10,815 nucleotides of DNA. Source: Candidatus Woesearchaeota archaeon (GTDB lineage: Archaea; Nanobdellota; Nanobdellia; UBA10117; WJKY01). The position numbers and the translations under genes were made by a program. The notes beneath the pieces are model-generated. The model saw only the letters and a list, made by a program, of their open reading frames with translations, ran no database searches and was not told where the DNA came from. Positions 2,505-10,334 of the stretch are shown piece by piece (within the stretch, counting starts at the first letter, position 1; the number at the start of each line of letters is the position of its first letter). The stretch is taken from assembly GCA_014728835.1 (NCBI GenBank), contig WJKY01000040.1, positions 1 through 10,815 on the forward strand, read 5' to 3'.

Positions 2505-2673
2505 AAAAACACCCTCTTTAGCGGGAAATTGTAGTCTCAATTAAACAATATAAACTTTTGGGAAAAACCGAATTCTTTTAAAATACTTATTTTGACTTTA
2601 AATTAGCAGAATCTTCGAATGCCCTAACAAAATCTAGGGACATAAGAACTGCTGTTAACTGGCGGAATCAGTT

Positions 2674-6841: not shown

Positions 6842-7319
6842 TTTTAATCACTGCTTTAATATCATTTACAAATTTTCTAGTAACACTAGAATATCTTTTT
6901 ACTGAGTTCAAATCTAATGTGGCTGTATCATAATCGTGAGACGTCAATATATATTTATTGCCGCGTCTGAATCGCATTGTGCCGTTTTTGTCGTATTTAT
7001 AAACTTCTAATAATTTGCCAAGTAATCTGTAATACTTAGGATCAAATTTGTATTTTTCTTCTAATTTTTGCCTGTAAATGCTGATTTCCATGGCAAAATT
7101 TTTTGGATATGCTTCTATTTGTTTGTAATATCTTTCATATTCTAGCAAAGATTGTAATGCTGCTCTGCTAGCAGTTATTATGTGCCCTGCTATAGCTAGC
7201 AAGAACTTTGTTTCTTTAATCATTGGATAAGTCATATAAAGAAGATGATCTGCAACTTCGATTTCTTTTTTTGCTATCTGCATAAGTTGCTCATGTTTGG
7301 TGTCTAACCTCGCTACCAT
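6834..7319 (-). CDS. Hypothetical alpha-helical protein (161 aa), first gene of the three-gene operon
   Basis: Clean ORF with codon usage like its neighbours. Motifs VADHLL and LAIAGHIITASRAA parallel those in the 117-aa ORF. I recognise no family. Confidence 0.6.
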   Translation of the reverse strand: MVARLDTKHEQLMQIAKKEIEVADHLLYMTYPMIKETKFLLAIAGHIITASRAALQSLLEYERYYKQIEAYPKNFAMEISIYRQKLEEKYKFDPKYYRLLGKLLEVYKYDKNGTMRFRRGNKYILTSHDYDTATLDLNSVKRYSSVTRKFVNDIKAVIKNE

Positions 7320-7365
7320 AGTTTATTTTAAGTAGTAATCTTATTTAATTTTTTAGGTAAGAAAC

Positions 7366-7372
7366 TTTATAT
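7366..7372. promoter_or_regulatory. TATA-like element (TTTATAT) between divergent transcription units
   Basis: It is near-palindromic and AT-rich. It lies about 45-50 nt upstream of the minus-strand ATG 7319 and upstream of the plus-strand GC-rich RNA region. A second TATA-like GTATAT sits at 7394-7399. Confidence 0.35.
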
Positions 7373-7550
7373 GTCCGTCGCTGCAATGCCTCAGTATATC
7401 CGCAACCGCGGTGAAGGTAAGCGCATTCCCCAATTCGAACGAAGTTCGAATGGGCCCCATCGAAACTATGTTTGATTAGGGCTTTGGACTGCACTGCACG
7501 GGATGCCGGCTTTGCCGAGATCGCATCTCGTGTCGCAACGGCGAAACGTT
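7373..7550 (+). ncRNA. Unassigned GC-rich structured RNA candidate directly abutting tRNA-Thr
   Basis: About 55% G+C by hand count, in an AT-rich genome. There are four consecutive strong hairpins at 7429-7454, 7456-7481, 7497-7532 and 7535-7552. There is no credible ORF. Strand is assigned by contiguity with the tRNA and the upstream TATA; the 5' end is uncertain (7373 to about 7421). Confidence 0.5.
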
Positions 7551-7624
7551 GCTTCGGTAGCATAGTCTGGTAATGCGTCTGCCTCGTAAGCAGAAGATCG
7601 AGAGTTCAAATCTCTCCCGGGGCT
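7551..7624 (+). tRNA. tRNA-Thr(CGU), intron-less
   Basis: GCTTCGG TA GCAT AGTCTGGTA ATGC G TCTGC CTCGTAA GCAGA AGATC GAGAG TTCAAAT CTCTC CCGGGGC T, 74 nt. The acceptor stem has two U-G pairs (3:70, 4:69) and the discriminator is U. Confidence 0.88.
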
Positions 7625-7629
7625 TTAAT

Positions 7630-8379
7630 ATGAAACCATTTGATATACATGTGCATTTTGAGGCATTTAAGCCAAAACAAGTAGATGGGCTTATTGCAGA
7701 TGCTAAAAAAGTTTTATCTGGAGCAATAAATCCAGGCACATATCCAAAAGCAAATAGGGTAGTTCTAAAACTAGCTAGAAAATATAAAGATTTTATTTGG
7801 CCTGCATTAGCTGTTCATCCAATTTATCTGCCTAAAATGACTGATGAACAGATAGAACAAGAACTTGATTTTATTTCAAAGCAAAACATTGTTGCGATTG
7901 GTGAAGCTGGTCTGGATTATTTTTGGCTGAAAAAAGTTATTAAGAAAAATGTTGATGAAGAAAAAAAGCGGCAAATTAAGTTTTTCAAAAAGCAAATTAA
8001 ATTAGCAGATAAAATGAATATTCCTATTATTATTCATTCGCGCTGGTCAATTGCTCGCGTTATAAAAATTCTAAAAGAAATGCGTCCTAAAAAAGCTGTG
8101 CTACATGGTTTTAGTGGGAATCTAGAACAAGCAAAAGACATGATTGATTTGGGATATATGCTATCTAATGGTCCGCGAGTTAGGGAATTTTTTAAGGATT
8201 TGCCTCTGAACAAAATTTTATTAGAAACTGATGCGCCATACATGAAAGTTAATGATAGAAATGCTGCTCCAAAAGATATTCTTTTGGCTGTGAAAAAATT
8301 AGCAGAGCTAAAAAATATTTCAGAGGAAAAAGTAATTAAACAGACAAACAAAAATGTGAAAAAATATTTTGAGATTTAA
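7630..8379 (+). CDS. tatD: TatD-family metal-dependent hydrolase/DNase
   Basis: Family motifs present: DIHVHF, GEAGLDYF, IIIHSR, LHGFSG and LETDAPY. The start is set at ATG 7630, because the track's upstream extension runs through tRNA-Thr. Confidence 0.85.
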   Translation: MKPFDIHVHFEAFKPKQVDGLIADAKKVLSGAINPGTYPKANRVVLKLARKYKDFIWPALAVHPIYLPKMTDEQIEQELDFISKQNIVAIGEAGLDYFWLKKVIKKNVDEEKKRQIKFFKKQIKLADKMNIPIIIHSRWSIARVIKILKEMRPKKAVLHGFSGNLEQAKDMIDLGYMLSNGPRVREFFKDLPLNKILLETDAPYMKVNDRNAAPKDILLAVKKLAELKNISEEKVIKQTNKNVKKYFEI

Positions 8380-9700: not shown

Positions 9701-9817
9701 TGTCAGCGGTCAAAGCACCGAGGTAATACCTGATCTCATTTCGAACTCAGAAGTTAAGCTCGGTTACGTTTTGGTGTGTACTTCGTCATACGCGGGAAAG
9801 CCAAAAAGCTGCTGACA
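9701..9817 (+). rRNA. 5S ribosomal RNA (stand-alone gene)
   Basis: Helix I pairs GTCAGCGG (9702-9709) with GCTGCTGAC. The conserved core CCTGATCTCATTTCGAACTCAGAAGTTAAGCTCGG is present. Helix II is ACCGAG/CTCGGT, and helix IV/V is TTTTGG...CCAAAA. Confidence 0.9.
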
Positions 9818-9822
9818 TTATA
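9807..9822 (+). repeat. Direct repeat copy 1 (AGCTGCTGACATTATA), covering the 5S 3' end plus 5 nt
   Basis: Exact 16-nt match to 9957-9972. Confidence 0.9.
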
Positions 9823-9956
9823 ATCTTCCACGATTATGAAGCGGTTCTCACTTCCCAAATCAAATGAAATTCGATTGGGTGTTCGAAAGTCTAAGCAACA
9901 GCCCAAAGTATATTCAACCAAGTTGAATATGCTAGCTCTAGTCCTGAGCGCAGGAC

Positions 9957-9972
9957 AGCTGCTGACATTATA
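9957..9972 (+). repeat. Direct repeat copy 2 (AGCTGCTGACATTATA)
   Basis: Exact 16-nt match to 9807-9822, 150 nt downstream. It lies immediately before the rnp4 TATA-like element. Confidence 0.9.
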
Positions 9973-9995: not shown

Positions 9996-10334
9996 ATGAT
10001 TATGGCTCGTAGAACTAAACCTGACTGGCAACAGGAAATTGCTAAGGAGCGAATAAGCATATTATTTAAGGAAGCTCTAAAGCAAGCAAAAGCTGGCAAC
10101 TTGGATAGAGCAAATAGATATGTTTTCTTGGCTCGCAAGTTAAGTATGAAATATCAAGTTCAGATTCCTAAGGCTTTGCGGCGCAAGTTCTGCCATAAAT
10201 GCTATCATTATTTATTGCCTGGCAAAACAGTTAAAGTGCGAACAAATCCTAAAACGCGCGCTGTGGAAATGCAATGCTTGGATTGCAAGCATATTAATCG
10301 CTATCCCTACTCAAAAACTAAGAGGTCCAAATAA
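9996..10334 (+). CDS. rnp4: RNase P protein component 4 (Rpp21/Rpr2 family)
   Basis: EIAKERISILFKEA, NRYVFLARKLSMKY and the zinc-ribbon pattern RRKFCHKCYHYLLPG...VEMQCLDCKHINRYP are typical of Rpp21. An alternative start is ATG 10002. Confidence 0.85.
   Translation: MIMARRTKPDWQQEIAKERISILFKEALKQAKAGNLDRANRYVFLARKLSMKYQVQIPKALRRKFCHKCYHYLLPGKTVKVRTNPKTRAVEMQCLDCKHINRYPYSKTKRSK

Follow-up and report, generated by a model that had tools for sequence, protein, structure and literature searches.

A GC-rich leader in front of a Woesearchaeota tRNA-Thr gene as a likely copy of a modular, intron-related insertion element

Why should a short, strongly GC-rich stretch stand directly in front of a tRNA gene in an AT-rich archaeal genome, and is it an RNA gene in its own right? 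The question arises at a tRNA-Thr locus of a Woesearchaeota archaeon. The window, that is, the whole stretch of 10,815 nt that was analysed, is contig C35 of the host genome G000 (592 kb in 98 contigs; assembly 81% complete), and window and genome have an overall G+C of 33.5% and 34%, respectively. Positions 7373-7550 reach 55.1% G+C, against 28% at 7200-7372 and 31% at 7625-7800. A sequence-only reading had described a GC-rich island of about 55% between AT-rich flanks, lying directly 5′ of tRNA-Thr, and both statements are borne out: an intact tRNA-Thr(CGU) occupies 7551-7624 on the plus strand, its first 9 nt (7551-7559) being GCTTCGGTA. A TATA-like box, TTTATAT with GAAAC before it (7366-7372, plus strand), is, on sequence grounds, a putative promoter of a leader-tRNA-Thr-tatD transcript. 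The tatD gene (TatD_DNase; Pfam PF01026, E = 8e-57) follows at 7630-8379 on the plus strand, starting 5 nt past tRNA-Thr, and is probably on the same transcript as the tRNA; the tRNA-Thr/tatD arrangement is also kept in relatives. We think it likely that 7397-7550 belongs to a family of non-coding, modular, GC-rich insertion elements that spread through one order of Woesearchaeota (DPANN), and that this copy is now carried as a passenger tRNA leader.

In terms of structure, the GC-rich interval folds well. Its MFE fold has −69 kcal/mol, with z = −3.1 against dinucleotide shuffles, and 1 of 200 shuffles was as stable; the opposite strand folds equally well (z = −3.1), and the strand of the RNA is thus undecidable from folding alone. 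The four hairpins of the sequence-only reading, A (7429-7454), B (7456-7481), C (7497-7506/7523-7532 around CGGC-TTT-GCCG) and D (7535-7552), are all present in the sequence and in the MFE fold. Rfam 15, searched over 7200-7700 at E ≤ 10, returned the tRNA and no other family, whether RNaseP_arch (RF00373), Archaea_SRP (RF01857), C/D or H/ACA guides, riboswitches or ribozymes, in agreement with the earlier remark that RNase P, SRP and guide-RNA motifs are missing; taken together, the searches at the gathering cut-off and at E ≤ 10 gave nothing beyond tRNA and 5S. Conserved C/D boxes were not seen by eye, and 'CUGA' is not kept among copies. A reduced RNase P RNA or SRP RNA was considered and rejected, since the sequence is multi-copy, is missing in relatives and is without CR-I/CR-V, and since the SRP RNA of the genome is placed elsewhere, at C82:15531-15804.

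What, then, do relatives carry at this site? Two metagenomic contigs, L040 and L041, encode a TatD with 77-78% protein identity to that of the window and have the same gene order: a helical-protein gene on the minus strand, tRNA-Thr and tatD. Their DNA aligns with the window to 7298 and resumes at 7549/7551, and the distance from the upstream gene to the tRNA is ~104 nt in both, versus ~250 nt in the window. In these contigs, a TTTAAAAA box of the same kind lies ~25-33 nt before tRNA-Thr; it is followed by ~25 AT-rich nt and then by the tRNA-Thr start GCCTCGGTAGCTCAG, with 154 nt missing. The missing segment, 7397-7550 on the plus strand, has 5′ and 3′ modules homologous to other copies described below; its end is possibly 7552, if the terminal hairpin finishes in GC. 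Abutting its 5′ end is GCCTCAGTA (7388-7396, plus strand), a decayed copy of tRNA-Thr nt 1-9. In the empty site of L040 and L041, tRNA +1 to +9 reads GCCTCGGTA, and the upstream copy in the window matches it at 8 of 9 positions, for which the chance at one fixed position, estimated from the sequence, is ~1e-4. The duplication is short, with one mismatch per copy, and if the element ends in …CGTTGC, tRNA nt 1-2 come from the element and the duplication shrinks to only 7 nt with 2 mismatches. Because the segment is absent in L040 and L041 and has a degenerate copy of tRNA nt 1-9 on either side, 7397-7550 is, judged by this comparison, an insertion into the first nucleotides of tRNA-Thr with a target duplication of ~9 nt.

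These results bear directly on the earlier proposal of a divergent or new stable RNA gene. The interval is indeed structured and GC-rich, on the strand of the tRNA, and belongs to no curated family, but a discrete conserved gene is rejected: it is absent from the syntenic locus in L040 and L041, it is bracketed by duplicated tRNA nt 1-9, and there are many copies. The conservation and covariation by which that gene was to be judged give a divided answer, in that conservation at the level of the locus is absent in relatives, while the helices do covary, across the repeat family and not across orthologues.

The design of the family, read on the tRNA strand, is hairpin 1, a purine-rich linker ending in AGC, P2, ACUG, a variable P3 and a terminal pseudoknot module. 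The window copy contains both halves of this design. Its 5′ module (hairpin 1, linker and the AGC-G[CU]AU…AU[GA]C-ACU helix) spans 7400-7496, and its 3′ module (P3 and the terminal pseudoknot or hairpin …GAACGUU(NC)) spans 7497-7550. Hairpin 1, exemplified in the family by AUCCG…CGGAU or GCUGAAAGGUCAGC, is the 5′ hairpin CCGC-AACC-GCGG at 7400-7411 (plus strand), and alignment A1 has compensatory changes at 6 of its 7 pairs. The conserved core of AGC, P2 and ACTG lies at 7420-7496 (plus strand), where P2 pairs GCATTCC (7423-7429) with GGACTGC (7486-7492) and bears hairpins A and B at its apex. Covariation was counted on module alignments and on the parsed helix, the MAFFT alignment of the P2 region being too ragged. 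Among 27 distinct copies of the AGC-G[CU]AU…AU[GA]C-ACU core, pair 2 and pairs 5-9 covary, with C-G and U-A each accounting for 13 of the 27 at pair 2 and with pairs 5-9 changing yet staying paired.

Downstream of the core, P3 corresponds to hairpin C (7497-7532, plus strand; in the MFE fold), and the equivalent hairpin differs in sequence between copies. The terminal module of the family interleaves a 4-bp S1 with a 4-6-bp S2 (AACG/CGUU or AACUG/CAGUU) and ends in …GAACGUU(NC). At the tRNA-Thr locus it lies at 7528-7550 on the plus strand, with S1 formed by TCGT (7528-7531) and GCGA (7541-7544) and S2 by AACG (7537-7540) and CGTT (7547-7550). S2 lengthens to GCAACG/CGTTGC through tRNA nt 1-2, which gives hairpin D; S1 overlaps the 3′ strand of P3 in this copy, so that S1 and P3 are mutually alternative. 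S1 is 96.7% paired, 3 of its 4 pairs show compensatory changes, and its score was reached by none of 500 shuffles, a statistic in which independence is overstated, the sequences being related. The idea that the four hairpins make up the architecture of one RNA therefore fails: C and D are P3 and the terminal hairpin of the family, and A and B are an extra module inside P2. The hairpins of the leader would then be the element's own conserved design, plus a nested two-hairpin module.

This nested module (7429-7481, plus strand; in the MFE fold) is missing from other copies of the element. A similar two-hairpin module stands alone in AT-rich surroundings in a genome of another family (G022:C86, locus L013, ~2044-2071); its hairpin A is 93% identical to that of the window, and its hairpin B has a different inner stem that is still paired. 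The two-hairpin module may be a separate small mobile unit.

A compact, covarying and sequence-conserved pseudoknot whose end coincides with tRNA +1 in several copies calls to mind a small self-cleaving ribozyme, one that would cut its own 3′ end to free the tRNA. We regard this as highly improbable. No Rfam ribozyme family matched at E ≤ 10, and inspection gave neither an HDV-like nor a hammerhead core (conserved CUGANGA plus GAAA, sought by eye). HDV-like folds begin with G and cleave at their own 5′ end, and no small ribozyme is known to cleave at its extreme 3′ boundary, which we also count against this reading. Furthermore, the module abuts duplicated protein-gene ends and lies antisense in the 5S trailer, and cleavage would be pointless at both.

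The window copy is far from alone in its genome. When the flanks of all ~20 detectable tRNAs of G000 were listed, many tRNAs proved to be followed, preceded or interrupted by related GC-rich sequence, and the elements occupy tRNA leaders, tRNA-tRNA spacers, trailers, tRNA introns and inserts at gene ends. There are at least 12-15 P2 cores in G000 (a loose P2-core pattern gives 15 matches, of which 13 distinct cores form the helix). A structural scan for the pseudoknot gave 46 matches versus 14-17 in shuffles, with 11 true terminal modules among them; nhmmer with a 29-nt terminal-module profile, which is too weak, added no copies. Over its final 23 nt, the window copy matches the leader of tRNA-Thr(UGU) (contig C66) at 100% identity. 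Short copies also exist; instead of being truncated at random, they comprise either a 5′ module or a 3′ module, with the break after ACUG. In the window itself, a terminal module alone (CTGC TGTT AACTG GCGG AAT CAGTT; 2649-2673, plus strand) ends exactly at +1 of an intron-bearing tRNA (2674-2782).

Insertion footprints are also seen elsewhere in the genome. When G000 was scanned for exact direct repeats (≥14 nt, within 450 nt), ~18 short GC-rich inserts bracketed by local copies emerged, nearly all at gene termini, and at least 8 of them carry family modules. The duplications at gene-end inserts range from 9 to 58 nt, and the duplicated targets include a tRNA 3′ end (23 nt, C14) and several protein-gene starts (18-58 nt). 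Empty sites were found for three inserts, namely the tRNA-Thr copy, a copy in the 5S trailer and one at the rpS28e/rpL24e junction. The 5S trailer holds a full second copy within the window (134 nt, 9823-9956, minus strand), antisense to 5S and flanked by a perfect 16-nt duplication of the 5S rRNA 3′ end (9807-9822 and 9957-9972); read on the minus strand, it consists of hairpin 1, UAGAGCUAGC, P2, ACUU and the terminal pseudoknot, and the site is empty in L041, with one AGCTGCTGACATTA. At the rpS28e/rpL24e junction (C22), the insert is 61 nt long and the duplication of the stop region is 36 nt exact, or 40 nt with one mismatch. The rpS28e stop abuts the rpL24e ATG in 8 of 11 relatives of the order, which is the arrangement of the downstream repeat copy in G000.

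Several further loci of G000 deserve a description of their own. At C18:4437-4594, a 58-nt direct repeat (5′ UTR, ATG and 10 codons) brackets a 42-nt half element, and the 3′ strand of the element's P2 forms the beginning of that repeat, an arrangement that simple insertion with target duplication leaves unexplained. Duplicated starts of a Pop5-like and an aIF5B-like gene are found at C22:2542-2716 and C12:8775-8904, where synonymous third positions are the only differences between the two copies and the insert provides the downstream copy with a GGAGG Shine-Dalgarno sequence. A full element also lies behind tRNA-Leu at C66:3340-3485 (minus strand), where its end directly adjoins the ATG of a zinc-ribbon protein gene, a layout that implies a tRNA-element-mRNA transcript.

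The positions of the copies suggest a further explanation, in which the element is a functional leader or spacer module that works as 'punctuation': an RNA-binding protein or endonuclease would separate tRNAs and mRNAs at it, and it would have spread for its usefulness. Spacer copies begin right after the discriminator base and end 0-3 nt before the next tRNA +1 or ATG, the P2 base and …GAACGUU are strongly conserved across families of the order, the majority of copies have the orientation of their flanking genes, and several give a duplicated gene start a Shine-Dalgarno sequence. Against this, the tRNA-Thr locus of close relatives works without the element, at least one copy (5S trailer) runs antisense to the neighbouring genes, some copies are only a 5′ half or a 3′ half, and the target duplications mark insertion and not a designed spacer. 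We consider a punctuation module unlikely.

The inserted element is thus our preferred reading of the leader, and its history at tRNA-Thr could be as follows. The element would have entered the very start of tRNA-Thr(CGU), duplicating nt 1-9, and would now lie between the old promoter and the intact tRNA, with the promoter firing onto the decayed upstream copy of the tRNA start. Transcription from the box at 7366-7372 would run through element, tRNA-Thr and tatD, RNase P would cut at 7550/7551, and a leader of ~155 nt would be released and then decay. Co-transcription of the leader with tRNA-Thr and its removal by RNase P are probable, as far as the arrangement of the locus can tell. Under this scheme, the leader would have no dedicated function at the tRNA-Thr locus, but 'no function' may be too strong: since motifs such as AGC-GCAU…AUGC-ACUG and …GAACGUU persist across families, and since by a rough count ~11 copies are sense to their neighbours versus 1 antisense, the RNA or the transcribed strand could matter, be it through a role of the RNA itself or through a route of insertion that is tied to RNA.

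Removal by RNase P is supported by a gene for its protein Rpp21 in the window (9996-10334, plus strand; Pfam PF04032, E = 2.4e-16), which lies 2.4 kb downstream and is separate from the element, and because of which an RNA-based RNase P is expected in G000. Rpp21 and a Pop5-like gene start (C22) are encoded in G000, yet RF00373, the RNase P RNA, has no match anywhere in this 81%-complete assembly. The RNase P RNA of G000 may be highly divergent or unassembled.

That missing match has also been counted in favour of a different route, the 'exo-intron', in which the tRNA splicing endonuclease would remove the leader through a BHB at its boundary and RNase P would not be needed. The idea gains further from the make-up of the tRNA introns of G000: those at 37/38, in the D-loop and in the T-loop are built from element modules (hairpin 1, GCAC, AGC-P2-ACUG), the terminal pseudoknot is present in one 37/38 intron, and introns and non-intron inserts have stretches of 29-33 nt in common at 91-97% identity (E 7e-9 to 7e-6), with E of 7e-9 to 6e-8 for near-identical ones of 30 nt. 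Family members within tRNAs sit in BHB folds, as in the T-loop, where UUCA/UGAA forms the central helix. At the leader, on the other hand, no BHB was seen by eye or in the fold, either at 7396/7397 or at 7550/7551. The presence of Rpp21 argues for a normal RNase P, and cleavage by the endonuclease alone would account neither for the 9-nt tRNA fragment upstream nor for the end next to the promoter. Excision of this leader by the splicing endonuclease is, in our judgement, decidedly unlikely, and we return to an inserted element trimmed off by RNase P. A candidate 7-nt target duplication at T-loop intron borders (UUCAAAG/UUGAAAG) was examined and rejected, since the UUCA/UGAA pair is the 4-bp central helix of the BHB.

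The kinship with introns leads to a broader and more tentative suggestion, on which we would not insist: the element family might be a vehicle of archaeal tRNA intron gain, a small folded insert that lands almost anywhere in transcribed DNA. Copies at gene ends would be tolerated since the long target duplication rebuilds the gene, and copies inside tRNA bodies would be tolerated wherever a splicing fold can form. The element termini coincide with tRNA-processing sites, the 5′ end lying after the discriminator base or at an intron 5′ end and the 3′ end at tRNA +1, so a spread via processed by-products of tRNA maturation is possible. The route of spread could then involve an RNA intermediate, or else an undescribed 'long target duplication' insertion pathway.

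How widely is the family distributed? The exact terminal motif occurs in only G000 and G034 among 39 genomes of the order, with 11 and 2 copies of the terminal module, respectively. The P2 core in its hairpin form reaches at least 12 genomes of the order (15 in G000, 16 in G003, and 3 each in G016, G010 and G023) and a few genomes elsewhere in the class, with controls near zero. G003 has a uniform element of ~95 nt with the parts in the same order, ending in …CAGAACGUUA and with target repeats on its flanks, one of which reproduces the start of a tRNA-Thr gene (TGCCTCGGTAG); G016 has the same kind of bracketed inserts, with repeats of 19 nt and ~35 nt. A scan of the genome collection for the terminal motif gave single chance matches only, in high-GC bacteria, and viral contigs contained no copy, with one chance match.

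In two G003 loci, L079 and L080, elements are inserted 10-23 nt into tRNA genes, the start of which is duplicated. At L079, the sequence past the element resembles a new TATA box (TTTATAAAAAG) that lies ~27 nt upstream of the intact tRNA.

A search for an enzyme that could mobilise the element gave mostly negative results. The element itself has no terminal inverted repeats and no gene, its ends reading TATCCGC… and …GAAACGTT. Reverse transcriptase (PF00078) is absent in the 81%-complete assembly of G000 and in G034; of the 39 genomes in the order, 2 encode one. The same incomplete assembly of G000 yields no Y1 transposase, and its only DDE_Tnp_1 match lies on a 56%-GC probable contaminant contig, with none in G003 or G034. 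The only recombinase candidate in G000 is of the XerA type, on contig C97.

Eight contigs of G000 (C3, C9, C25, C28, C34, C42, C48 and C67) have a G+C of 51-62%, versus 34% for the genome, and are probably bin contamination; one of these holds the sole DDE transposase match, and another a second integrase.

We finally compare the Woesearchaeota family with known systems, starting with the transposed tRNA introns of Thermoproteales (Fujishima et al. 2010, summarised in section 17 of PMC4090602), whose mechanism is stated there as unknown. Both systems have near-identical intervening sequences in different tRNA genes and positions of one genome, which implies spread at the DNA level. Unlike those introns, the Woesearchaeota family has members beyond the tRNA bodies as well, namely in leaders, in spacers, in the 5S trailer and at protein-gene ends, and these outside copies come with target duplications and with empty sites in relatives, features that have not been reported for the Thermoproteales introns. 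The arrival route of archaeal tRNA introns is explicitly called unknown both in that section and in a preprint on Asgard tRNA introns (bioRxiv 10.64898/2026.10.13.758758), which found no such route. In this respect, it matters that one repeat family supplies intron bodies and at the same time shows a datable insertion footprint, with target duplication and empty sites. One small genome shows this footprint at the ends of tRNA, 5S rRNA and ribosomal-protein genes, and the question of intron arrival becomes testable.

Three classes of small or tRNA-associated elements resemble the family in part. First of all, like MITEs and small repeats such as Rickettsia palindromic elements and yeast mitochondrial GC clusters (PMC4478555), the copies are short, gene-less, multi-copy, hairpin-forming and GC-rich in an AT-rich genome, and they are tolerated inside or beside genes, as the elements treated in PMC4478555 are. 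Unlike MITEs, they have no terminal inverted repeats, their duplications are long and variable (9-58 nt), and no partner transposase was found. Second, like SINEs, they are small, associated with RNA genes and mostly sense, with variable target duplications, a conserved 3′ end and copies without the 5′ part. In contrast to SINEs, G000 and G034 lack a reverse transcriptase, and the 'truncations' coincide with a single module boundary, after ACUG, instead of being random. Third, as in the attL/attR of tRNA-targeting integrases (SSV and pNOB8 type; the Caldiarchaeum tRNA-Thr locus, PMC3293823), a tRNA fragment is duplicated beyond the insert. In our case, on the other hand, protein-gene starts and stops and the 5S end are duplicated too, there is no adjacent integrase, and it is the insert, not the repeat, that recurs. 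MITE, SINE and integrase att duplication each fail at least one defining test. For annotation, GC-rich structured islands beside DPANN tRNAs need a check against relatives and of copy number before a stable RNA gene is called.

A further resemblance is to bacterial restriction-modification units that arrive by 'insertion with long target duplication' and with no other mobile elements (Nobusato/Kobayashi; PMC2853133). Like the inserts of PMC2853133, ours have long variable direct repeats, often lie at gene or tRNA ends, carry no transposase or integrase and have empty sites in relatives. A long variable repeat, a single-copy target in a relative and the lack of a mobility gene are clearer at the 5S and rpS28e copies; the tRNA-Thr repeat (7388-7396/7551-7559), set against the empty site of L040 and L041, fits as well, but is short and imperfect. 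The cargo differs, however. The inserts of PMC2853133 are kilobase gene cassettes of bacteria, with repeats from >30 bp to ~400 bp, whereas the present ones form a non-coding, folded archaeal family of 40-160 nt with no restriction-modification genes, and the survey in PMC2853133 contains no archaeal case. 'Insertion with long target duplication' is thereby extended from bacterial gene cassettes to tiny non-coding archaeal elements, and the GC-rich leader is best read as one copy of a non-autonomous insertion element that is specific to the lineage and related to introns.
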